Shown piece by piece: positions 24,654 to 38,873 of a stretch of 64,000 bases of DNA; position 1 is the first letter of the stretch, and every line of letters starts with the position of its first letter. The position numbers and the translations under genes are program-made. Source of the DNA: Acidimicrobiia bacterium (GTDB lineage: Bacteria > Actinomycetota > Acidimicrobiia > IMCC26256 > PALSA-555); the NCBI GenBank assembly GCA_035468285.1, contig DATISY010000067.1, positions 836 to 64,835 of the forward strand, in the 5' to 3' direction. The notes under the pieces were generated by a model. The model did not search any database and was not told the DNA's origin. It was given only the letters and a program-made list of their open reading frames with translations.

Positions 24654-27509
24654 ATGACGCTGCGAGACCTCGACGCATCGTTCGTGCGACGTCACGTCGG
24701 CCCCGACGCCACGGAGCAGGCGGCGATGCTGGAGCTGCTCGGTCTCACGTCGCTCGACGAGCTCGCCGACCGGGCGGTCCCCGCCGCGCTCCGCGACCGG
24801 GACGCGCTCGAGCTGCCCGCCGCCGGCACCGAGACAGCGGTCCTCGAGGAGCTGCGCGGCCTCGCGGGGCGCAACGAGGTCCTCGTCTCCCTCATCGGCG
24901 GCGGGTACGCCGACACGATCACGCCACCGGTGATCCAGCGCAACGTGCTCGAGAACCCGGCCTGGTACACGGCGGACACGCCGTACCAGCCGGAGATCTC
25001 CCAGGGCCGCCTCGAAGCGGTCTTGAACTTCCAGACGATGGTGAGCGACCTCACCGGGATGGAGCTCGCCAACGCGTCGCTGCTCGACGAGTCCACCGCG
25101 GCGGCGGAGGCCATGACCCTGTGCCACCGGGTCCACCCGAAGGCCGGCAACACGTTCGTCGTCGACGCCGACTGCCATCCGCAGACCATCGCGGTCGTCC
25201 AGACCCGGGCGGAAGCCCTCGGGCTCGAGGTGCTCGTCGCCCCGGCTGACGACGTCGCCGCCGAGGACGTGTTCGGCGTCCTCCTCCAGGAGCCCGGCAC
25301 CAGCGGCCGCGTGTCGGACCGGCGGGCGCTCATCGCCGACTGGCATGCCCGGGGCGCGCTCGTCGCCGTCGCCACCGACCTGCTGGCGTGCGCGCTGGTC
25401 GTCCCGCCGGGGGAGCAGGGCGCCGACGTCGTCGTCGGTTCCTCGCAACGCTTCGGTGTCCCCCTCGGCTTCGGTGGACCCCACGCCGCGTTCCTCGCCA
25501 CCCGCGACGAGTACAAGCGGAGCCTCCCGGGCCGCCTCGTCGGTGTCTCGGTCGACGCCGGGGGCCGGCGGGCGCTGCGCCTGGCGCTCCAGACCCGGGA
25601 GCAGCACATCCGCCGGGAGCGCGCCACGAGCAACATCTGCACCGCGCAGGTGCTCCTGGCCGTGATCGCCGGCCTGTACGCGGTGTACCACGGGCCCGAC
25701 GGGATCCGTCGCATCGCCCGCCGCGTGCACCGCCTCGCCGCGATCCTGGCCGCCGGGCTCCGCGAGGGCGGTATCGACGTCGTCCACGACGACTGCTTCG
25801 ACACGCTGACCGTACAGACCCCCGGTCGCGCCGAGGCGGTCACGGCACGGGCCCGGGAGCGGGGGATCAACCTGCGGACCGTCGACACCGACACGCTCAG
25901 GATCGCCCTCGACGAGACGACCACCCCGGCGATCGTGGAGCAGGTCTGGGCCAGCTTCGATGTCACCGCGAGCGTCGCCGACCTCGACGCCTCGACATCC
26001 GACGCGCTCCCCGAGGCGTTGACTCGCACCACGGCGTACCTGACACATCCGGTGTTCCACCAGCACCAGTCCGAGACGGAGCTGCTCCGCTACCTGCGGC
26101 GCCTCTCGGACCGGGACCTGGCGCTCGACCGGACGATGATCCCGCTCGGGTCGTGCACCATGAAGCTGAACGCGACCACCGAGATGCTGCCGATCACCTG
26201 GCCCGAGTTCGCCCGGCTCCACCCGTTCGCGCCGCTCGGGCAGGCCGCCGGGTACGTCGAGCTGTTCACAGACCTCGAGCGCTGGCTGGCCGAGATCACC
26301 GGGTACGACGCGGTGTCGCTCCAGCCGAACGCCGGGTCCCAGGGTGAGCTCGCCGGGCTGCTCGCCATCCGCGCCTACCACCGCGACCATGGTGCCGAGC
26401 AGCGCGACGTGTGCCTGATCCCCGCGTCCGCCCACGGCACCAACGCGGCGAGCGCCACGATGGCCGGCATGCGCGTCATCGTCGTCGCCTGCGACGACGA
26501 CGGGAACGTCGATCTCGACGACCTCAAAGCGAAAGCCAACCAGCACGCCGACCAGCTCGCTGCGCTCATGGTCACGTACCCGTCGACGCACGGGGTGTTC
26601 GAGGCGAACATCCGTGACGTGTGCGCGGTCGTCCACGAGCACGGCGGCCAGGTGTACCTCGACGGCGCGAACCTGAACGCCCTCGTCGGGCTCGCCCGCC
26701 CCGGCAGATTCGGCGCCGACGTGTCGCACCTCAACCTGCACAAGACGTTCTGCATCCCCCACGGTGGGGGAGGGCCGGGGGTCGGGCCGGTCGCGGTGCG
26801 CGCCCACCTCGCCCCCTACCTGCCGAACCACCCGCTGGAGCCCGCCGCGGGACCCGCGACCGGCGTCGGGCCGATCAGCGAAGCCCCCTGGGGCTCGGCG
26901 GGGATCCTGCCCATCTCCTGGGCGTACGTGCGGCTCATGGGCCCCGACGGGCTGCGGACCGCGTCGCTCGTCGCGATCCTCAACGCCAACTACGTGGCGC
27001 GGCGCCTCGCGTCGCACTACCCGGTCCTCTACACCGGCCCCGACGGGCTCGTCGCGCACGAGTGCATCCTGGACCTGCGCCCGATCACCCAGGCGACGGG
27101 CGTCACCGCCGAAGACGTCGCGAAGCGGTTGATCGACTACGGGTTCCACGCGCCGACGATGTCGTTCCCGGTCGCAGGGACGCTGATGGTCGAGCCGACT
27201 GAATCCGAGTCCCAGCACGAGCTCGACCGGTTCTGCGACGCGATGACCGCCATCCGCGACGAGATCCGCTCGGTGGAGCGAGGGGAGTGGACCCTCGACG
27301 ACAGCCCGCTTCGCCACGCCCCGCACCCCGCGGCTGACCTGCTCTCGACCGACTGGCCGCACCCGTACGAGCGGGAGCGCGCCGCGTACCCCCGGCCCGA
27401 GCTACGGGGCGACAAGTACTGGCCGCCGGTGAGCCGCATCGACAACGCGTACGGCGACCGCAACGTCGTGTGCTCCTGCCCGCCGCTCGAGGACTACGTG
27501 GGGGAGTGA
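24654..27509 (+). CDS. gcvP: Glycine dehydrogenase (decarboxylating), single-chain P protein
   Basis: 951 aa. FVRRHVGP start, [11 protein letters not shown], and the PLP-lysine region [16 protein letters not shown]. Confidence 0.95.
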
Positions 27510-27553: not shown

Positions 27554-28183
27554 ATGACCGAACGCTGGGGTGGCGAACCGACCGAACCGGTGCCCGGCTA
27601 CGGCCGGGGCTCCGAGGGGTACGGCAACCAGCCGGGCGGCGAGCCCACCCAGATGCTGCCCCCGAACCGGCGCCCCGCCGGTCCCGGCGGTCCCGGCGAC
27701 CCCGAAGCGCAACGGCGCCGCCGAGCCTGGCTGATCGCCGGCGCCATCCTCGCCGTCCTCATAATCGTCGTGCTCGTCGTGCTCCTCATCACGAGCGGCT
27801 CGGGTGGGAACTCGAGCAACGCGGTGAACATCAGCTCGTTCAACGTGCCGAGCACCGTGGCGTGCTCCGGCCCGACGACCATCGGCGTGTCCTGGAGCAC
27901 GAGCAACGCGAACGAGGTCGTCCTCTCGATCGACGGCGCCGGCCCCTACAAGACCTACAACGGGACCAGCGGCGCGGACACCGTCCCGTTCCCCTGCAAC
28001 GGCCAGCCCCACCGGTACACGATCACCGCCAAGAGCAACAGCGGCGGTCAGGCCACCCAGACCCAGACGGTCACGCAGCTCACGGCGCCGACGACGACGC
28101 AGAAGCCCACGCCGACGACCCAGCCGCCCCCACCGACCACGACCACCTCACCGCCGCCGCCCACCACGACACCCACAACCTGA
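27554..28183 (+). CDS. Membrane-anchored protein with extracytoplasmic beta-rich domain and Thr/Pro-rich tail
   Basis: 209 aa. Disordered Gly/Pro N-terminus, one TM (WLIAGAILAVLIIVVLVVLLI), an about 90-aa domain with two Cys, then TTQKPTPTTQPPPPTTTTSPPPPTTTPTT. No family recognised. Confidence 0.55.
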   Translation: MTERWGGEPTEPVPGYGRGSEGYGNQPGGEPTQMLPPNRRPAGPGGPGDPEAQRRRRAWLIAGAILAVLIIVVLVVLLITSGSGGNSSNAVNISSFNVPSTVACSGPTTIGVSWSTSNANEVVLSIDGAGPYKTYNGTSGADTVPFPCNGQPHRYTITAKSNSGGQATQTQTVTQLTAPTTTQKPTPTTQPPPPTTTTSPPPPTTTPTT

Positions 28184-28361: not shown

Positions 28362-28805
28362 ATGTCGACGGAAGACAACAAGGCGATCGTGCGCCGGGCG
28401 TACCTCGATGGCCTCAACCATCGCGATCTCGGCGTCGTCGACGAGGTCTTCGACGTCGACTACGTCGTGCACTACCCCCACACCGGACCGGTCAAGGGGG
28501 TCGAGAAGGCCAAGGAGTTCCTCACCCAGTTCCTGACCGCCTTCCCCGACTGCGTGTTCACCATCGAGGACCAGGTGGCCGAGGACGACAAAGTCGTCAC
28601 CCGCTGGTCGTGCCGGGGGACCCACCTGGGGGAGTGGCACGGCCTGCCGGGCAGCGCGGACCCCACGGTCCCCCCGAGCGGGAGGCCGGTGGCGTTCGGC
28701 GCCACCGACATCTACCTGATCCGGGACGGCAAGATCGTCGAGGAGTGGAACACGCTGGAGCAGCTCGACGTCCTGTCCCAGATCGGCGCCCTGCCGGGCA
28801 CGTAA
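28362..28805 (+). CDS. SnoaL-like ester cyclase family protein
   Basis: 147 aa with a GAGGAGGG RBS. NKAIVRRAYLDGLNHRDLGVVDEVF..DYVVH...FPD..FTIED..AEDDKVVTRW..RGTH.GE is the classic ester-cyclase/SnoaL pattern. Confidence 0.85.
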   Translation: MSTEDNKAIVRRAYLDGLNHRDLGVVDEVFDVDYVVHYPHTGPVKGVEKAKEFLTQFLTAFPDCVFTIEDQVAEDDKVVTRWSCRGTHLGEWHGLPGSADPTVPPSGRPVAFGATDIYLIRDGKIVEEWNTLEQLDVLSQIGALPGT

Positions 28806-29057
28806 GGGGAGCAGCCGATCCGGGCCCTGGATCCGGCCCCAGGTCTCGTACCTGGCTCTAGTTGACATAACGGGGATTATCGGCAAGTTCTGAAGCGGAG
28901 ATCCGCACCGAGCCCCAGAACCCCTGTTTGCCCCGGATCCTCAAGGAACGCCCCCGAATCGCCGATGCCTCTTAAGGCTGGGAGGCGGACCGGACGAAGG
29001 TCCGCGTCCCCCGCCGTGCGCTGCTTGACCGATGGCAGCAACGAAGGGGTCCGGATC

Positions 29058-29555
29058 ATGCGAAGACACCGCAGGCTGGCTGCCAGTGGCGTCATCGCGA
29101 CGGCGGCCGTCTTCACCGCCCTGACGATCTCGCCGGCGTTGGCCGCTCCGCCCAGCCACACCGGCGCCTCGCGCACGGTCACCCCGATCGTCGAGTGCAC
29201 CACCAAGCGCAACGGGATATACCACTCCGTCTTCGGCTTCCGGAACACCGGACCGGCGACCGTCATCGCGGTCGGGAGCCAGAACCGGTTCACGCCCGGC
29301 AACCCCGACCGGGGCCAGCCGACCACGTTCGCCCCCGGCGTCCACATCAACGTCTTCCAGGCCGACACTTCGGCGACGTTGGCCTGGACGCTGGACGGTC
29401 AGCAGGTCCGGTCCCCGGGCATCACCTGCCAGTCCGACCCCGCCTCGAGCTCCCTCGCCGGGTGGGGCCCGATCGGCGCCCTCGTCATCGTGACCGGTCT
29501 CCTCGGCTCGCTGCTGTTCTGGCGGAGCCGCCGTCTGCGGGTGCGCAACTCGTGA
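29058..29555 (+). CDS. Secreted protein with C-terminal TM helix plus Arg-rich tail (candidate exosortase cargo)
   Basis: 165 aa from ATG 29058. Signal peptide MRRHRRLAASGVIATAAVFTALTISPALA/AP, an about 100-aa two-Cys beta-rich domain, then SDPASSSLAGWGPIGALVIVTGLLGSLLFWRSRRLRVRNS. The stop overlaps the GT2 start. Confidence 0.7.
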   Translation: MRRHRRLAASGVIATAAVFTALTISPALAAPPSHTGASRTVTPIVECTTKRNGIYHSVFGFRNTGPATVIAVGSQNRFTPGNPDRGQPTTFAPGVHINVFQADTSATLAWTLDGQQVRSPGITCQSDPASSSLAGWGPIGALVIVTGLLGSLLFWRSRRLRVRNS

Positions 29556-30988: not shown

Positions 30989-31515
30989 ACCGGCAAGGAT
31001 TCGCCGTCCTGGGTCGGCTCGCGATCGCTTTCGGCGCCACCGTCGTCGCCTTCTGGCTCCTGATCGACCCGTGGCGCAACGTCGAGGCGTCGACCATCGC
31101 GCTGCTGTTCCGCAGCGCGGGCGCCCGGGGCGCCAGCCAGGCGTTCGGCAACCAGATCCTGGTCATCCCCAACCACTCGGCACCGTTCTTGGCCACGATC
31201 AGCCCGTCGTGCTCCGCGCTCGCCGCCCTCCTCGCGTTCGCGGCCATCGCCGGGTTCGTGGTGCGCGGGGACCGGCAACGACGGCTCATGGCGTTCCTCG
31301 CCGCCGCGGCCCTCATCCTCATCTGCAACTTCATCCGGATCGGTCTCTCGGTCTTCGTCGGGATCCACACCAACGCGCAGGGTCTGACCGTGTTCCACGA
31401 CTGGATCGGGACCGCGTTCGGGATCCTCTACGTCCTCGGAGGCTTCACCTTGTTCCTCTGGGTCCTGCTGCCCAGCAACCGGACACTCCTAAAGGAATAC
31501 GCCCATGAAAGCTGA
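30985..31515 (+). CDS. Exosortase/archaeosortase family protein, short form (XrtG-like)
   Basis: 176 aa from GTG 30985 (GTGA overlap). Polytopic. Candidate catalytic Cys in ISPSCSALAAL, Arg in ICNFIRIGL and His in VFHDWIGTAFG, in the order and spacing I associate with the exosortase core (CSG...NxxRI...H). Confidence 0.65.
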   Translation: MNRQGFAVLGRLAIAFGATVVAFWLLIDPWRNVEASTIALLFRSAGARGASQAFGNQILVIPNHSAPFLATISPSCSALAALLAFAAIAGFVVRGDRQRRLMAFLAAAALILICNFIRIGLSVFVGIHTNAQGLTVFHDWIGTAFGILYVLGGFTLFLWVLLPSNRTLLKEYAHES

Positions 31516-32152
31516 CACACAGCTCATACTGGTCGCTGCGGGAGCGGCCGCGATCCTGCTGGCGATCGTGTGGCGGTTCCTCGCCCGCGCCCGCCAGATC
31601 CACCGGCTGGAGCGCGCCCTCCGCGGCGACGGGCAGCCCGCCGAGCGGGCCCGCGCCGGGAACACCATCGTCGAGCTCGGGCTGGCCCGGGCGTCCAAGT
31701 CGGTCCTCCAGATGATGCCCAAGGAGCCCGACGACCGGGTCCGCCTCTCGGTGGCCCTCGCTGTCGCCCGACGCCAATGGGAACCGACCCGCGCGAAGCG
31801 GGTCGTGCAGGTACGCGCCTGGGCGAGCGAGGAGCTCGAGCAGCACGGCCGTCCGGTGCGTGAGTTCGGACCGGCCGTCACCCGCCTGGCCGACATGGGC
31901 GGCCCCCGGAACCCCAACCCCCCGCGGCGTCCCAACGGCGCGAACGTCCAACCTGAGGCCCCCACCGCCCCGACCCCGGTCGCGACCCTCGACCCGAGCC
32001 CGGAGCCAGGCACCAACGCCGACGGCAACGGCAACGGGAACGGGAACGGGGCCGACATCATCTACCGGCCCGAGGCGGCCCCGACCCGGGCCCGCAACCA
32101 GGACGGCGCCATCCGCTGGGTCGCGCCGACCGGTAGCGAGCGGACCGACTGA
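31505..32152 (+). CDS. Hypothetical N-terminally anchored protein with disordered Pro/Asn/Gly-rich C-terminus
   Basis: 215 aa, overlapping the upstream gene by 11 nt. One TM (LILVAAGAAAILLAIVW), a helical region, then PRNPNPPRRPNGAN...DGNGNGNGNG. No family recognised. Confidence 0.5.
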   Translation: MKADTQLILVAAGAAAILLAIVWRFLARARQIHRLERALRGDGQPAERARAGNTIVELGLARASKSVLQMMPKEPDDRVRLSVALAVARRQWEPTRAKRVVQVRAWASEELEQHGRPVREFGPAVTRLADMGGPRNPNPPRRPNGANVQPEAPTAPTPVATLDPSPEPGTNADGNGNGNGNGADIIYRPEAAPTRARNQDGAIRWVAPTGSERTD

Positions 32153-33085: not shown

Positions 33086-34237
33086 ATGCGCCTCCTCGTC
33101 CCCTTCGGGACCCGCCCCGAGATCGTCAAGCTCGCCCCCGTCGTCGAGGCGCTGCGCGCCGCCGGTCACGAGGTCCACGCCGTCGCGACCGGCCAGCACG
33201 ACGACCCGCGCCTCTCCGACCGGTTCTTCGTCGACCTCGGTCTCGTGCCCGACGAGCGGTGGTCCCTCCCCCACCTCGAGGCGGAACGCGTCGGCGCGCT
33301 GCTCACCAACGCGTACGAGACCATCGACATGCGCCGACCCGACGCCGTCCTCCTGCTGGGCGACACCCACACCGTCCCGCTGTTCGGGCTCGCCGCCCGA
33401 CGTTTCGGGGTCCCCGTCGCGCACCTCGAAGCCGGCCTGCGGTCCTTCAACGAACGCTCGCTCGAGGAGGTCAACCGGCGCACCGTCGCCGCGATGACCT
33501 CGCTGCACCTCGCACCGACCGACCTCGCGGCCGGGTTCCTCGCCGCGGAGGGGATCGACCCGCGCCGGGTGCGGGCGGTCGGCAACCCCATCACGGACAC
33601 GCTGCGTCTCTACGGCCCCAACCGTCGGCCCCCAGACGAGCGCGACGGCGTCGTCGTCACCGCCCACCGAGCCACGAACGTCGACGACCCCGTCCGCCTG
33701 GGCCACCTCGTGGAGCTCATCCGCCGCCTCGCCGTCGAGGTCGGCCCCGTCCGGTTCCCGGTCCACCCCCGGACCCGCTCCCGGCTCGACGCCACCGGCC
33801 AGCTCGCCGACCTCGTCACCGCCCCCGGGGTCGAGCTCCTCGAACCCCTCCCCTACCCCGAGATGCTCGACGCCATCGCCGGCGCCCGGGTCGTCGTCAC
33901 CGACTCCGGGGGCCTCCAAGAAGAGGCCGCGTGGCTGGGCGTCCCGACCGTCGTGCTGCGCACCTCGACGCCCCGGTGGGAGAGCGTCAACGCAGGGATC
34001 GCGGCCCTCGTCGGCCTCGACCCCGACCGGGCCGTCGCGGCCGCGGTGGCGTTCAGCGACCCGGACACGCAGGCCTGGATCGCCGCGGTGCCGTGCCCGT
34101 ACGGGGACGGGTTCGTCAGCCGGCGGGTCGCCGCGCTGCTCCACGACCCCGAGATCCACGCTCTCCTGACCCTCGAGGAGCCCACGCTCCCGGACGGGCC
34201 GGCCCTGCCCCGCAGCGTCACGGTCGGTGCCCGATGA
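33086..34237 (+). CDS. wecB: UDP-N-acetylglucosamine 2-epimerase (non-hydrolysing type)
   Basis: 383 aa. FGTRPEIVKLAPV, GQH, LLLGDTHTV, VAHLEAGLRSF, EEVNRR and VVTDSGGLQEEA blocks. Confidence 0.9.
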   Translation: MRLLVPFGTRPEIVKLAPVVEALRAAGHEVHAVATGQHDDPRLSDRFFVDLGLVPDERWSLPHLEAERVGALLTNAYETIDMRRPDAVLLLGDTHTVPLFGLAARRFGVPVAHLEAGLRSFNERSLEEVNRRTVAAMTSLHLAPTDLAAGFLAAEGIDPRRVRAVGNPITDTLRLYGPNRRPPDERDGVVVTAHRATNVDDPVRLGHLVELIRRLAVEVGPVRFPVHPRTRSRLDATGQLADLVTAPGVELLEPLPYPEMLDAIAGARVVVTDSGGLQEEAAWLGVPTVVLRTSTPRWESVNAGIAALVGLDPDRAVAAAVAFSDPDTQAWIAAVPCPYGDGFVSRRVAALLHDPEIHALLTLEEPTLPDGPALPRSVTVGAR

Positions 34238-34947
34238 TCGCCGCGGTGCTCTTCGACCTCGACGACACCCTCTATGACCAGCGCCAGTTCCTGGACGGCG
34301 CCTGGCGGGCCGTCGCGGCCCGGGCCGCCCTCGACGGCGTGGACCCCGACGAGTTCGAGTCTGCGCTCCGCGACCTCGCCACCCACGGCAGCGACCGGGG
34401 CCACATCATCGACCTGGCCCTCGCCCAGGTGGGTGCGCCGTCCGTCGCGGTACCCGACCTCGTCGCGCAGTTCCGGCGGCACCGACCCGAGCGGCTCGAG
34501 CCCTACCCCGGTGTGCTCGACGCCCTCACCGGGCTGCAGCGACGCGTGCCGCTCGGTCTCATCTCCGACGGCGACCCGGTCATCCAGCGCGCCAAGCTCG
34601 ACGCGCTCGGCGTCGAGCGGTTCTTCACCAGCGTCGTGTTCAGCGACGAGCACGGCCGCGCGCACCGCAAACCCGATCCCCTCCCGTTCCGACGCGCGCT
34701 CACCGAGCTCGGGGTCGACGCCCGCGACGCCGTCTACATCGGTGACCGCCCGGCGAAGGACGTCGTCGGCCCGGTCGGGGTCGGGATGCGCGCCATCCGG
34801 GTCCAGACCGGCGAGTGGCGTGCCGAGCCCGACGACCCGCGCGCGTGGGCGTCGGTGCCCACCGTCGTCGACGCCGTCACCCTGGTCCGCCGCGCACTCC
34901 CCTGGGTCGCGACGGTCGACGAGCCCGCCAGCGCGGCACATCGCTAG
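34234..34947 (+). CDS. HAD family hydrolase
   Basis: 237 aa with an ATGA overlap. Motif I LFDLDDTLYD, motif II LGLISDG, and motif III/IV KPDP...YIGDRP.KDV. Confidence 0.85.
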   Translation: MIAAVLFDLDDTLYDQRQFLDGAWRAVAARAALDGVDPDEFESALRDLATHGSDRGHIIDLALAQVGAPSVAVPDLVAQFRRHRPERLEPYPGVLDALTGLQRRVPLGLISDGDPVIQRAKLDALGVERFFTSVVFSDEHGRAHRKPDPLPFRRALTELGVDARDAVYIGDRPAKDVVGPVGVGMRAIRVQTGEWRAEPDDPRAWASVPTVVDAVTLVRRALPWVATVDEPASAAHR

Positions 34948-34977: not shown

Positions 34978-35784
34978 TCAGAGCCGGATGAGGACGCGGT
35001 ACCGGTAGCGCTCGCGGTAGCCCATGCGCGCGTAGGTCGATTCGCCGAACGGGGATGCCTCCAGCGTGAGGAGCTGCGCGCCCCGAGCGAAGGCTTCGTT
35101 CGTGACGGCGCGGGTGACGACATCGCCCAGGCCGCGGCCCCGGGCCGCGTCGGCGCACGCGACCCAGCCCACGTACCCGTCCGGCTCAGGGCCGAACAGG
35201 ACGGCGAGCGCGCCGGCGACGACGACGCCGTCGAGCTCGGCGACCGCGACGACGCAGTCGGAGCCGAGCAGGACGTCGGGGGTGTCGACCGGTGTGCGGG
35301 TCGCTGCTTCGGGGACGCCCAGATGGGTGAACGCCTGCCCGGCGACGGCTGCGTACGCGGCGACGTCAGCGGGGAGCTCAGCCAGCCGGACGGTGATCCC
35401 CTCGGGCGGGGTGCGTGGCTCGAGTGGCTGCTCGCACACCATCTCGGGGGTCTGGGCCCACTCCTGGAAGCCACGCGGCGTGAGTCGCTCGTGGAGGTCG
35501 TCGTCGGCGCCGACCCGGGCGAAGACGCACCCGGTCTTGCCGTGCCGGTCGAGGAACGCGGTCAGGGTGTCGACCCACGCGTCCGCCGGCAGCGAGCTCG
35601 CCGAGCGGACCGCGGAGCGGGTGCTCGGGAAGTCGATGGAGCCGGCCACCGCGACGACGCCACCGTCGTCGAGGAGCTCGCTGCCGGGATCGAGCCGGGC
35701 CTGGAAACGCGTGAAGGCGCACAGGTTGTCGTGGGCCCGGTCGTCGATGGTGGGGGGCTCGCCGGCGGGTGACGCGACGCTCAC
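34978..35784 (-). CDS. GNAT family N-acetyltransferase (two-lobed)
   Basis: 268 aa from GTG 35784 (GTGA overlap with the NUDIX stop). The C-terminal lobe has the acetyl-CoA motif ARGRGLGDVVTRAV. Confidence 0.7.
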   Translation of the reverse strand: MSVASPAGEPPTIDDRAHDNLCAFTRFQARLDPGSELLDDGGVVAVAGSIDFPSTRSAVRSASSLPADAWVDTLTAFLDRHGKTGCVFARVGADDDLHERLTPRGFQEWAQTPEMVCEQPLEPRTPPEGITVRLAELPADVAAYAAVAGQAFTHLGVPEAATRTPVDTPDVLLGSDCVVAVAELDGVVVAGALAVLFGPEPDGYVGWVACADAARGRGLGDVVTRAVTNEAFARGAQLLTLEASPFGESTYARMGYRERYRYRVLIRL

Positions 35785-36215
35785 GAGTCCGTCGGGGGTG
35801 TCGGGAGGCGGTGGAGGTCGGTGAGGACGTCGACGGCCTCGAGGAAGTCGACGAGGCCGGCGACGAGCCGGTAGCTGCCGAGGTCGGGGATCGGGACCCA
35901 CGCGGCCTCAGCGGCGTCGTCACCGGCCCGGACGGGGGCATCGGGGTCGAGGACCGTGACCCGGAAGTCGAGGATGACGAAGTGCCGGTCGTCGTCGAAC
36001 CGTTCGACCCAGCCGAGGAGCTCGTCGACGACGACGTCGAGGCCGGTCTCCTCGAGGACCTCGCGCACGACCGCGGCTTCGACAGGCTCCCCCGCCGCGA
36101 CGCGGCCACCGGGGACGGACCACTCCCCCGCCGCCGGCCCGTGCCCGCGGCGGACGAGGAGAAGCCGGTCGTCGCTCACCGCGACACCGCCGACGGCGAG
36201 TTCAGGACCGTTCAC
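35781..36215 (-). CDS. NUDIX hydrolase
   Basis: 144 aa. Nudix box GGRVAAGEPVEAAVVREVLEETG. Confidence 0.85.
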   Translation of the reverse strand: MNGPELAVGGVAVSDDRLLLVRRGHGPAAGEWSVPGGRVAAGEPVEAAVVREVLEETGLDVVVDELLGWVERFDDDRHFVILDFRVTVLDPDAPVRAGDDAAEAAWVPIPDLGSYRLVAGLVDFLEAVDVLTDLHRLPTPPTDS

Positions 36216-36700: not shown

Positions 36701-37261
36701 TCAGGCGACCGGGTGGTTGAGCTGCTCGATCTTGCCGAGCACCGTGTTCCGGGCCCGGTGCTCGGTCTCGTACGCCCGGATGGCGTCGAGCTCGGCGCGG
36801 GACAAGCCGTCGAGGTGCTCGACGACTTGGGAGGCGGACAGCTCGTCATAGTCGGGGATGGCGAGGTGGCGGCCGTTCCCCGCGGCGCCCGTCGCGGGTG
36901 GCGGGCTCGCCGTGTCCCGCACCGGGCCCGTCGCCGGGGGCGCCGTGCCCGTCGGGTTGCCGAGCAGCGTGTTGAGCGCGTTGATGGCCGTCTCGGCCTG
37001 CTCCCGGACCCTCGTGATCCCGTCGGTGACGATCCGGGTCACATGGGGGCCGCCGTGGTTCGTGGCGAACTCGCCGACGGCGCGGGCCTGACCGAGCTGA
37101 CCGCCGACCGACTTGCGCTGCTCGTCGACGACCGACCGGCCCCTGGCGACGAAGAGCTTCACGAACGACGGTGCGGTGTCACGGAGGTAGAGGGCGAACC
37201 CGAGCGGCCCGTAGACGAGGAGCTCGAGAGCCTTGTCGGTGGCGTCATGGTCGTCAGGCAC
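36701..37261 (-). CDS. Hypothetical protein (helical N-domain, Pro-rich linker, helical C-terminal module)
   Basis: 186 aa, overlapping the lnt stop by 8 nt. The C-terminus IPDYDELSASQVVEHLDGLSRAELDAIRAYE resembles short Rho_N/SAP-like helical modules. No confident family. Confidence 0.55.
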   Translation of the reverse strand: MPDDHDATDKALELLVYGPLGFALYLRDTAPSFVKLFVARGRSVVDEQRKSVGGQLGQARAVGEFATNHGGPHVTRIVTDGITRVREQAETAINALNTLLGNPTGTAPPATGPVRDTASPPPATGAAGNGRHLAIPDYDELSASQVVEHLDGLSRAELDAIRAYETEHRARNTVLGKIEQLNHPVA

Positions 37262-38873
37262 CGGGTGCTCCTTCGGCTCGGTGACGTGCCGGCGAGTCTA
37301 CGGGGACGTCCCGCCGGGACCGTCGCCCAGCGACGAACGCCACGGCGAGGAGCGCCACCGCGGAGCCGACGAGGACCCACTCACCGAAGCGGACGAACGG
37401 GGTCTCACCGGTGGTGGTCAGCAACGTCCCCGTCGTGAGGGCGCTCGTGAACAGGCCGGTGCTCTGCTGGACCGAGCCGTCGGCGTCGATGACCGCGGTC
37501 TCGCCGGAGAGCGCGGCGTGGAGCACGGGGCGGCCCGTCTCCGCGGCGCGCATCTGGCCCGTCGCGACGTGCGTCGCGGCGATACCGGACCGGCCGTAGG
37601 ACCGGTCGCTGGTGCTCACGACGATCGCTTGGGCGCCGTCACGGACGAAGCCTCGAACCAGGGGCGCGTACGCCGACTCGTAGCAGATCACGGTCCCGAA
37701 CGGTCGCCCCGCGGCGTGGAACAGGACGCGGCGGTTCCCGGCGGTGAAGTCGTAGGGGATCTGGCGGAGGTCGCTGATGAACGTGAGCTGGCGGCGCAGC
37801 GGGACGTACTCCCCGAACGGGACGAGGTGCTGCTTGGCGTACACGCCGAGGAGGCGCCCGTCGGGCCCGTACGCGAGGTTCGCGTTGTACAGGAGGCCGT
37901 TGGGGGCCCGGTAGCGGGCGTTGACCAGCACCACCGCGCCGTGCTTCGCCGCCAGGTCGACGATGCGCTGCCGGAGCGGCGGGAGCTCCTCGGGGTCGTA
38001 GTCGAGCGCGGACTCGGGGAACACGATCAGGTCGTAGTGGCCCTGCAACCGGTCGGCGAGCGCGAAGTGCGCGTTGGTGAGGTCCTGATCGGCGATCTGG
38101 ATCGGGCTGCTCGGCCCTTCCTGCTGGTCGCCCTGGAGGAGCGCGAAGTGGAGCCGGCCCGTCGTGCGGGGCTGGTAGCGGGTGACGTCAGCGACCGCGG
38201 CGAGCGCCAGGAGCCCGACGAGCCCGGCCGCGGCGAGCGTGAGGGGACGCGGGACGGCCGGCCGGGACGCGACGAGCGCGTCGAGGACGAACCCGTTGAA
38301 CGCGACGACGACGAACGTCACGAGCGCGACACCACCGAAGCTGGCGAGCGCGCGGGCCGCCCCGATGTTGTGGAGCGCGATGCCGGTCTCGCCCCACGCC
38401 AACCCGCCGAGGGGCCAGCGGCCCCGGAGCGACTCGAAGAACACCCACACCGCGGCGGTGAGGAACGGGCTGCGGATCCCCCGCCGTGCGAACGCGGCGA
38501 CGAGCGCGCCGGTCGCGGCGTAGTAGCAGGCCGCCGCGACGATGAGGGAGACGGTCCCGGTGTAGCCGGTGTTGGTGAGCCCGGCCATCAGGACACCGAG
38601 GAACGCCAGCGCGAACACGAAGCTGTCGCGGGCCGCGCTGAGGGGGGTCGCGTCGCGCCAGGCCCACAGGAGCGGGACGAGCGCGACGAGCGCGAGCGGC
38701 CCGAGGTCGGCCGGCGGGTACGCGAGGGCGAGGAGCACCCCCGACACCACGGCGGCGAGGAGCCGCAGCTGGGTGCGGCGCCGGGCCGCCGGCGCAGGGA
38801 CGCTCAGGCGCAGTCGCGGCAGAGCATCCGCTCCTCGTCGGCTAGCTGGTTGCGGGGCAGGACGAGGAAGCAT
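37254..38873 (-). CDS. lnt: Apolipoprotein N-acyltransferase
   Basis: 539 aa. N-terminal polytopic region (LLALAYPPADLGPLALVALVPLLWA...), then a CN-hydrolase domain (LIVFPESAL...VLVNARY...ICYES). The start is uncertain: ATG 38873 overlaps the upstream DUF4193 gene by 70 nt. Confidence 0.85.
   Translation of the reverse strand: MLPRPAPQPASRRGADALPRLRLSVPAPAARRRTQLRLLAAVVSGVLLALAYPPADLGPLALVALVPLLWAWRDATPLSAARDSFVFALAFLGVLMAGLTNTGYTGTVSLIVAAACYYAATGALVAAFARRGIRSPFLTAAVWVFFESLRGRWPLGGLAWGETGIALHNIGAARALASFGGVALVTFVVVAFNGFVLDALVASRPAVPRPLTLAAAGLVGLLALAAVADVTRYQPRTTGRLHFALLQGDQQEGPSSPIQIADQDLTNAHFALADRLQGHYDLIVFPESALDYDPEELPPLRQRIVDLAAKHGAVVLVNARYRAPNGLLYNANLAYGPDGRLLGVYAKQHLVPFGEYVPLRRQLTFISDLRQIPYDFTAGNRRVLFHAAGRPFGTVICYESAYAPLVRGFVRDGAQAIVVSTSDRSYGRSGIAATHVATGQMRAAETGRPVLHAALSGETAVIDADGSVQQSTGLFTSALTTGTLLTTTGETPFVRFGEWVLVGSAVALLAVAFVAGRRSRRDVPVDSPARHRAEGAPGA

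Follow-up and report, generated by a model that had tools for sequence, protein, structure and literature searches.

A small two-cysteine membrane protein as candidate dedicated substrate of a miniature exosortase-family enzyme in a polysaccharide cassette of Actinomycetota

An operon of seven genes was analysed within the window, i.e., the whole 64,000-nucleotide stretch of contig DATISY010000067.1 (positions 836 to 64,835) of an Acidimicrobiia bacterium. The first gene of this operon encodes a small, predicted exported protein that ends in a short motif, a single transmembrane (TM) helix and a cluster of arginines, while the third encodes a miniature protein of the exosortase/archaeosortase family. 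The comparison of homologous loci leads us to favour, with some reserve, the reading that the first gene encodes a dedicated substrate (hereafter the cargo) of this co-operonic enzyme. As judged from the sequences, the link between the two appears strongly supported by (i) the co-occurrence of their genes, (ii) the layout of the cargo tail and (iii) the constraint on that tail.

Eighty genome loci were retrieved by alignment to the enzyme alone, and cargo genes were then sought in them with the family profile and, next, with jackhmmer. Eight loci are cut off on the side where the cargo gene would lie. Among the other 72 (informative) loci, 66 carry one to three cargo-family genes inside a conserved cassette, so that the candidate signal and the sorting-enzyme family are co-distributed at the level of the locus. 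The pairing spans enzyme identities from 83% down to ~25%. The fetched loci originate from metagenome-assembled genomes (MAGs) labelled Actinomycetota, Actinomycetes or Acidimicrobiia, from Acidothermus- and Frankiaceae-like MAGs, and from cultured Geodermatophilaceae; throughout, the cassette retains genes for a family 2 glycosyltransferase (GT2), the exosortase, an adaptor, an ATP-grasp ligase, WecB and a HAD hydrolase. Since the cargo family is so rare and is nevertheless found within a few kb of the enzyme in nearly all informative loci, chance adjacency is very unlikely. The cargo gene is located upstream of the GT2 gene in clades A (the clade of the window), B and C, clade C having two or three paralogs in tandem, and just downstream of the HAD gene in Geodermatophilaceae (clade D), often in two copies. 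Its position and copy number vary, yet the gene stays in the cassette, which suits a client better than a core subunit.

The tail of the window protein reads SDPASSSLAGWGP-TM-RSRRLRVRNS, the order of its elements being C124-QSDPASSSLAGWGP-IGALVIVTGLLGSLLFW-RSRRLRVRNS, with 5 Arg in the 10 residues of the basic end; the motif, TM helix and Arg cluster are exactly as quoted in an earlier, sequence-only reading of this DNA. Together with the N-terminal signal peptide, they make up the generic tripartite architecture of sorting signals, in which the basic cluster occupies the extreme C-terminus. The close cargo family (22 clusters among 5.8 billion sequences, annotated at the source as "hypothetical protein") keeps C-Q-x-x-P-A-S-S-x-L-A-x-W-G-P, the helix and W-R-x-R-R-L-x-V-R almost unchanged. 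Column entropy in this family is 0.65 for the motif, 0.63 for the helix and 0.76 for the basic end, compared with 0.78 for the globular domain and 1.43 for the signal peptide, whose weak conservation is as expected of signal peptides. The protein's other hydrophobic stretch, the signal peptide, served as an internal control: the tail is conserved as well as the globular domain and far better than the signal peptide, and since a passive anchor would be expected to drift like the latter, the tail appears to be more than a passive anchor. The C-terminal helix (residues 137-164) is also the confident part (pLDDT 75-89) of an otherwise poor AlphaFold2 (AF2) model of the cargo.

The layout extends beyond the clade of the window. 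The basic cluster begins 30-37 residues past the tail Cys in all 76 family sequences, and a [LIVM]-[PAT]-x-x-G pentapeptide stands ahead of the helix in 68 of them. The W-G pair is confined to clade A, the other clades having V-P-x-x-G or L-P-x-[DE]-G-N-G, and the fourth pentapeptide position is taken by W, D, E, V or I in almost every one of the 76 sequences, with Thr only in LPATG (one member) and VPITG (two members). Read at the sequence level, the general tail grammar would be closer to LPXTG or V-P-E-P, minus the Thr at position 4. The sequence-only reading had proposed to look for a shared tail near homologs of the enzyme, and had named the lack of tail conservation in orthologous loci as fatal to its case: the tail is kept and all 76 sequences share the layout, but the L-A-x-W-G string is a property of clade A only. 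In Geodermatophilaceae, tails of same-genome paralogs share 62-79% identity as against 35-47% for their domains, the C2 and C3 paralogs of clade C share 60% in the tail and 36-40% in the domain, and the family-wide entropy of clade D is 1.32 for the tail vs. 1.92 for the domain. Paralog tails that resemble each other more than the domains do are the pattern expected if several clients fit one recognition site.

The enzyme scores above the cutoff of the superfamily model TIGR04178 (Table 1), distant cassette enzymes reach 36.8 and 39.5 bits, and the conserved Cys, Arg and His lie in a polytopic membrane protein with four hydropathy peaks. Residues C76, S77, N115, R118 and G126 are invariant in 81/81 cassette enzymes and F137-H138-D139-W140 is kept in 80/81. 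A catalytic role of Cys76, Arg118 and His138 is putative, by likeness to the archaeosortase ArtA; with the TIGR04178 cutoff passed and these residues intact, the enzyme looks active. Hydropathy and the positive-inside rule (RGDRQRR, residues 94-100, cytoplasmic) would place C76, R118 and H138 at the outer membrane face, i.e., in the same place as the juxtamembrane motif of the cargo. The AF2 model of the enzyme, built from a 60-sequence alignment (pLDDT 88.8, pTM 0.79), has long helices and, ahead of the SPSC76S loop, a small beta-hairpin region. In the PDB no relative was found by sequence, and the best Foldseek match of the model had E=0.5 and TM<0.35.

At the source the enzyme is annotated only as "exosortase/archaeosortase family protein", and the sequence-only reading had called it XrtG-like. 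That assignment was rejected, as the enzyme obtains 20.6 bits with TIGR03110 (cutoff 102.75; a partial match only) and the GT2 obtains 66.7 bits with the XrtG-associated model TIGR03111 (cutoff 363.95), its best match being PgaC_IcaA. All other named Xrt/Art models are far under their cutoffs as well, including XrtS (33 bits vs. 145, the best) and XrtR (22 vs. 150). With this, the expectation that the XrtG class would gain a recognisable cargo becomes moot, XrtG systems being already annotated with a Firmicu-CTERM protein (PMC12854382). The central proposal of the same reading, that the cargo is a substrate of the downstream enzyme, fared better: co-occurrence, intact enzyme residues and constrained paralog tails all speak for it, albeit for an enzyme other than XrtG.

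The cargo open reading frame (ORF) extends from ATG 29058 to the stop codon TGA 29553-29555, and an alternative in-frame ATG at 28965 would yield a product of 196 aa. The start at 29058 is preferred because the matching Met, and not that of 28965, is the start in nearly all aligned homologs, because an independent gene call on a related metagenome contig also gave 165 aa, and because GAAGGGG is present 9 nt upstream. Residues 1-29 are MRRHRRLAASGVIATAAVFTALTISPALA, followed by APP; the basic n-region, hydrophobic core and A-x-A site, along with the hydropathy profile and the ORF, bear out the cleavable signal peptide (ALA/AP) previously read in the first gene of the operon. There are exactly two Cys residues, C47 (29196-29198) and C124 (29427-29429), neither of which varies in the close family or in a 40-sequence alignment across all clades; this suggests a disulfide between the first strand and the domain's end. 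Also kept in the alignments are the closing Cys and the motifs P-I-V-x-C, G-Y-x-N, G-Q-P-T-x-F-x-P-G and W-x-L. The domain had been described as compact, two-Cys and beta-rich; its Cys pair is thus firmly established, while its beta-rich character is visible only in the low-confidence AF2 model (overall pLDDT 55, strands 45-65), which is too poor for a fold search. The cargo has no family match in Pfam or NCBIfam, and the best match of its domain profile among PDB sequences, the PD-1 IgV domain (E=0.058), is not significant. In two database entries, P0022 (252 aa) and P0148 (447 aa), the cargo runs on into part of the GT2 frame that follows; the probable cause is a frameshift or a read-through in gene calling where the two genes overlap (GTGA).

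The distribution of the tail among other proteins was analysed with a 42-column profile built from the clade A tail only. An exhaustive HMMER search of 1.84 billion representatives returned two true matches, both of the cargo family with the same N-terminal domain, and a third, low-complexity false match; on this search, the tail is no modular signal common to unlike proteins. A word-indexed search of 5.8 billion sequences returned a family fragment (P0143) and a chance match, and as it did not recover the known members P0001-P0020 it gives no valid negative. No other tail-bearing family was found in the 64-kb window or in the fetched loci, where a simple pattern flags only Lnt-like proteins and a few unrelated ORFs. 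The Lnt protein of the window itself (LNT_N and CN_hydrolase domains; 37254-38873, minus strand) also ends in a TM helix and Arg residues, which means that a plain TM+RR pattern alone yields false positives. A tail carried by a single protein family would indicate a dedicated system in the sense of PMC3237569, where dedicated sorting enzymes encoded beside a single target are a described pattern, unlike the many-to-one PEP-CTERM system.

Several of these observations weigh against the cargo being a processed substrate. A portable suffix, i.e., one signal on many unrelated proteins, was not found, so that modularity, classically the best proof of a sorting signal, is lacking; the tail has always travelled with its domain, which would be equally true of a structural membrane anchor. 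Across all clades only the Cys is invariant in the motif, and in clades B and C overall the tail is conserved to much the same degree as the domain. The tail fits no curated sorting-signal model: an NCBIfam scan (E<=5) of the window cargo and five cargos of other clades gave no CTERM or LPXTG match. In six loci with full flanks (L023, L029, L031, L036, L058 and L077) there is no cargo gene within 7 kb; they keep an intact cassette and intact catalytic residues, and their cargo gene may lie elsewhere in those genomes. Finally, the case for the cargo as a substrate is built on genome comparison throughout. Most of these points would be accommodated by an accessory subunit of the polysaccharide machinery that stays uncleaved and anchored by its C-terminus, e.g., a periplasm-side partner of the GT2, with the tail kept for helix packing against the GT2 or the exosortase-like protein. 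Such a subunit would explain why the domain and the tail never occur apart, why the clade A tail-profile search met the tail on no other family, why the cargo gene is always within a polysaccharide cassette, why the tail in clades B and C is no better conserved than the domain, and why no known sorting-signal model fits. A copy number of one to three, a shifting position and absence from six otherwise intact cassettes would, however, be unusual for a core subunit, and substrates of sortase, exosortase and rhombosortase show exactly the same succession of signal peptide, motif, helix and Arg cluster (PMC3237569, PMC11980579). In addition, the cassette would then offer no visible substrate to a protease-family enzyme whose catalytic residues are all intact. 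We consider the accessory subunit unlikely, though the most serious competitor of a dedicated substrate.

Two further explanations separate the tail from the neighbouring enzyme. Single C-terminal helices followed by Arg are common, as the Lnt protein of the window illustrates, and the cargo could be an ordinary bitopic protein whose adjacency to an exosortase-family gene is meaningless; this is very improbable for a family which, with only 22 clusters in its close clade, lies near the enzyme in 66/72 loci across several Actinomycetota families, and whose tail shows much stronger conservation than the signal peptide does and, among paralogs, stronger conservation than the domain. The tail might otherwise be a variant of a classical sortase signal, the exosortase being irrelevant to its processing. 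Actinobacterial class E sortases use LAxTG, and sortase cuts after the Thr at position 4. The tails, reading LAxWG or LPx[DE]G, do combine an L-[AP]-x-x-G pentapeptide with a helix and an Arg tail as LPXTG-type signals do, but almost all members have W, D, E, V or I instead of that Thr, no LPXTG model matches even at E<=5, and the cargo family tracks the exosortase gene. The searches of the loci (by cassette homology and tail pattern, with no sortase model included) flagged only cassette genes, Lnt-like proteins and a few unrelated ORFs. A sortase signal is, in our view, even harder to credit than an ordinary anchor.

In the window the seven genes (Table 1) are translationally coupled through GTGA, ATGA or TGATG overlaps or 1-nt gaps; the GTG start of the GT2 gene overlaps the cargo stop codon (GTGA). 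Independent gene calls on the related metagenome contig gave the same order (cargo, GT2, exosortase, unknown, ATP-grasp, epimerase, HAD). The GT2 gene is present in every locus not cut off upstream of the enzyme, and the ATP-grasp gene is syntenic in all loci with the downstream flank present; among NCBIfam models, the ATP-grasp protein comes nearest to those named "carbamoyl phosphate synthase-like protein", without reaching the cutoff of any (best 174.5 bits vs. 390).

Table 1. Coordinates of the operon genes and protein features in the window, and consensus tails of the cargo clades
Feature	Position (nt)	Strand	Basis
Cargo-candidate gene, 165 aa, first gene of the operon	29058..29555	+	ORF and translation
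Signal peptide, residues 1-29 (MRRHRR...SPALA, then AP)	29058..29144	+	Sequence reading; hydropathy peak 7-25
Extracytoplasmic domain, ~85 aa, beta-rich (low-confidence model), between Cys47 and Cys124	29175..29429	+	Alignments; AF2
Juxtamembrane motif, residues 125-138 (QSDPASSSLAGWGP), with clade A pentapeptide [LIV]-A-x-W-G	29430..29471	+	Entropy 0.65; clade consensus tails
C-terminal TM helix, residues 139-155 (IGALVIVTGLLGSLLFW)	29472..29522	+	Hydropathy peak 136-154; AF2 helix 137-164; entropy 0.63
Cytoplasmic basic cluster, residues 156-165 (RSRRLRVRNS)	29523..29552	+	Sequence reading
Membrane GT2 synthase, PgaC/IcaA-like, 478 aa	29552..30988	+	Pfam Glyco_tranf_2_3, Glycos_transf_2, Glyco_trans_2_3; NCBIfam best PgaC_IcaA, 128 bits, below cutoff
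Miniature exosortase/archaeosortase-family protein, 176 aa	30985..31515	+	TIGR04178, 47.5 bits vs. cutoff 23
Conserved putative active-site residues of the enzyme	Cys76 (31210-31212), Asn115/Arg118 (31336-31338), His138 (31396-31398)	+	Alignment
215-aa protein, N-terminal TM helix (7-25) and weak HEAT-like domain	31505..32152	+	Weak HEAT_2 match; hydropathy
ATP-grasp ligase, 310 aa	32152..33084	+	Pfam ATP-grasp_3, ATPgrasp_Ter
WecB, non-hydrolysing UDP-GlcNAc 2-epimerase	33086..34237	+	TIGR00236, 230 bits vs. cutoff 210; Pfam Epimerase_2
HAD-family hydrolase, last operon gene	34234..34947	+	Pfam Hydrolase, HAD_2; ATGA overlap with wecB
Consensus tail, clade A (window clade): C-x3-P-A-S-S-x-L-A-x-W-G-P...F-W-R-x-R-R			
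Consensus tail, clade B (L008-L017): C-x-x-N-P-V-P-x3-G...R-x-R-R			
Consensus tail, clade C (L021-L038): C-x-x-K-P-V-P-x-x-G-N/S...R-x-R-R			
Consensus tail, clade D (Geodermatophilaceae): C-P-x-S-T-x-L-P-A/E-D/E-G-N-G-T-G...R-x-R-R-R			

The TM/HEAT-like protein behaves as an adaptor module: it stands alone in clades A and B, is fused to the N-terminus of the ATP-grasp ligase in clade C (e.g., L024, 7555-9060, 501 aa), and is fused to the C-terminus of the exosortase in Geodermatophilaceae (e.g., L043, 6875-8008, 377 aa). On the strength of these Rosetta-stone fusions, exosortase, adaptor and ATP-grasp ligase seem to cooperate at the membrane; a limited literature search found no paper describing an exosortase-ATP-grasp link. 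A PIG-L de-N-acetylase is encoded in the cassette of 61/80 loci (e.g., L023, 4765-5550; L058, 11200-11946), either between the cargo and the GT2 or after the cargo, and is absent from the window's own clade. The combination of a PgaC-like GT2, WecB and PIG-L suggests an N-acetylhexosamine (HexNAc) polymer, with partial de-N-acetylation in most clades.

No regulatory signal emerged from promoter/terminator and Rfam scans of the region 27.4-36 kb. Between gcvP (24654-27509) and the operon lies a gene for a 209-aa protein (27554-28183, plus strand) with a central TM segment and a Pro/Thr-rich C-terminus, whose homologs are located upstream of the cassette in the close loci L001, L003 and L005-L007. 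The operon is further flanked by a gene for a SnoaL-like protein upstream (28362-28805, plus strand) and, downstream on the opposite strand, by genes for a GNAT acetyltransferase and a NUDIX hydrolase (34978-35901 and 35781-36215, both minus), the last two being present also in the related contig L081.

If the cargo is a dedicated substrate of the enzyme, its precursor would be exported through the N-terminal signal peptide, and the two-Cys domain would fold outside the cell, with the C-terminal helix held in the membrane and the Arg cluster in the cytoplasm, as predicted by positive-inside topology. The 176-aa enzyme would recognise the juxtamembrane pentapeptide and the helix and cut on the outer face via Cys76, through a thioester intermediate. 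As archaeosortase A/PGF-CTERM and sortase suggest by analogy, an acceptor would next receive the domain, which would not be left on the helix; candidate acceptors are a membrane lipid or the HexNAc polymer made by the PgaC-like GT2 and WecB (in most other clades with PIG-L). That the GT2 product is the acceptor, as the sequence-only reading had put forward, is a speculation that we rate as improbable. The enzyme appears to have the TM/HEAT-like protein and the ATP-grasp ligase as physical partners. A more specific proposal, rather improbable in our estimate, is that the exosortase transfers the cleaved protein covalently onto the GT2 polysaccharide, e.g., onto free amines of the partly de-N-acetylated HexNAc polymer, with the membrane-tethered ATP-grasp ligase supplying or activating a linker.

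Exosortases first came to light in silico, from the exopolysaccharide loci with which they are associated. In the literature consulted, their archaeal relative ArtA is the only one for which the chemistry of the C-terminus after processing is treated, and in that case, too, the exact processing site and the lipid that is attached are called unclear (PMC11980579). If the transfer onto polysaccharide were true, the cassette would be a one-enzyme, one-substrate, one-polymer system in culturable Actinomycetota and would for the first time define the chemical link long suspected between exosortases and exopolysaccharides; if the cargo were an uncleaved subunit, it would be just a conserved, uncharacterised polysaccharide operon. 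The cassette is a minimal, self-contained one, consisting of one tiny enzyme, one small candidate substrate family, one synthase and a few accessory genes. It is found in the cultured genera Geodermatophilus, Modestobacter, Blastococcus, Klenkia and Trujillonella, so that the cleavage site, the acceptor and the phenotype are directly testable. A limited literature search found no paper joining exosortases with these actinobacterial taxa, and neither NCBIfam release 20 nor Pfam has a model for the enzyme clade, the tail or the cargo domain. New for annotation are the enzyme clade, the cargo/tail family and the fusion-supported exosortase-ATP-grasp link, by which a cytoplasmic ATP-grasp ligase would be tethered to an exosortase. 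The gain for the catalogue of such systems is incremental, yet the cassette is an unusually clean, culturable test case.

Among the known systems, PEP-CTERM/exosortase A (EpsH) shares with the cassette the signal peptide, a short Pro-containing motif, the helix and the Arg cluster, the enzyme superfamily and a genomic link to exopolysaccharide synthesis (PMC3237569, PMC11980579). It differs in being modular and many-to-one, with dozens of unrelated cargos per genome where the cassette tail is on one family, and in its enzyme, which has eight helices in place of ~4-5. Moreover, the Actinomycetota hosts are not known to have an outer membrane, unlike the Gram-negative hosts of PEP-CTERM. Assignment of the tail to PEP-CTERM itself (TIGR02595) was rejected, there being no model match and no P-E-P motif; the tails nearest to V-P-E-P are those of clade C (P-V-P-A-E-G-N). 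The sequence-only reading had likened the L-A-G-W-G entry into the helix to the IPTLxxWG signal, a resemblance that dissolves on comparison, as W-G occurs only in clade A, IPTL is lacking and no IPTL-CTERM match was obtained in NCBIfam at E<=5.

Sortase/LPXTG systems, including class E (LAxTG), have an L-[AP]-x-x-G pentapeptide followed by a helix and basic residues, as the cargo does, but their enzyme family is unrelated; the tail was rejected as an LPXTG/LAxTG signal on the grounds of the missing model match and of position 4, which is not Thr in nearly all members. Archaeosortase A of Haloferax volcanii (ArtA), with its PGF-CTERM substrates, is the only relative of the enzyme known to have been characterised by experiment, and offers a parallel in that it processes a tripartite signal at the C-terminus in a Cys-dependent way, after which a lipid is attached (cited in PMC11980579); it differs in being archaeal and larger, in its PGF motif and in its lipid acceptor. 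Of the named subfamilies, XrtS (NF033767) is the best-scoring one, with 33-41 bits over nearly the full length, a similar size and a conserved core, although these scores are far below the cutoff of 145 and the cassette enzyme is no member. Other miniature enzymes of ~150-175 aa (XrtR, XrtM, ArtE and ArtF) are likewise similar in size and share the conserved core.

Judged by its sequences, the cassette would belong to no named subfamily or signal tested, and its closest counterpart in the list of parts would be XrtG/Firmicu-CTERM. The differences are that the window enzyme and the GT2 fail TIGR03110 and TIGR03111, that no Firmicu-CTERM model matches the tail, that the host belongs to the Actinomycetota, and that the cassette adds the TM/HEAT-like adaptor, ATP-grasp, WecB, HAD and, in other clades, PIG-L. 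XrtG systems of Firmicutes are annotated with their cognate Firmicu-CTERM protein and glycosyltransferases (PMC12854382), and the likeness lies in a dedicated Gram-positive system in which a small CTERM-tailed protein, a small exosortase-family enzyme and one or more GT2-type glycosyltransferases are encoded side by side (PMC12854382).

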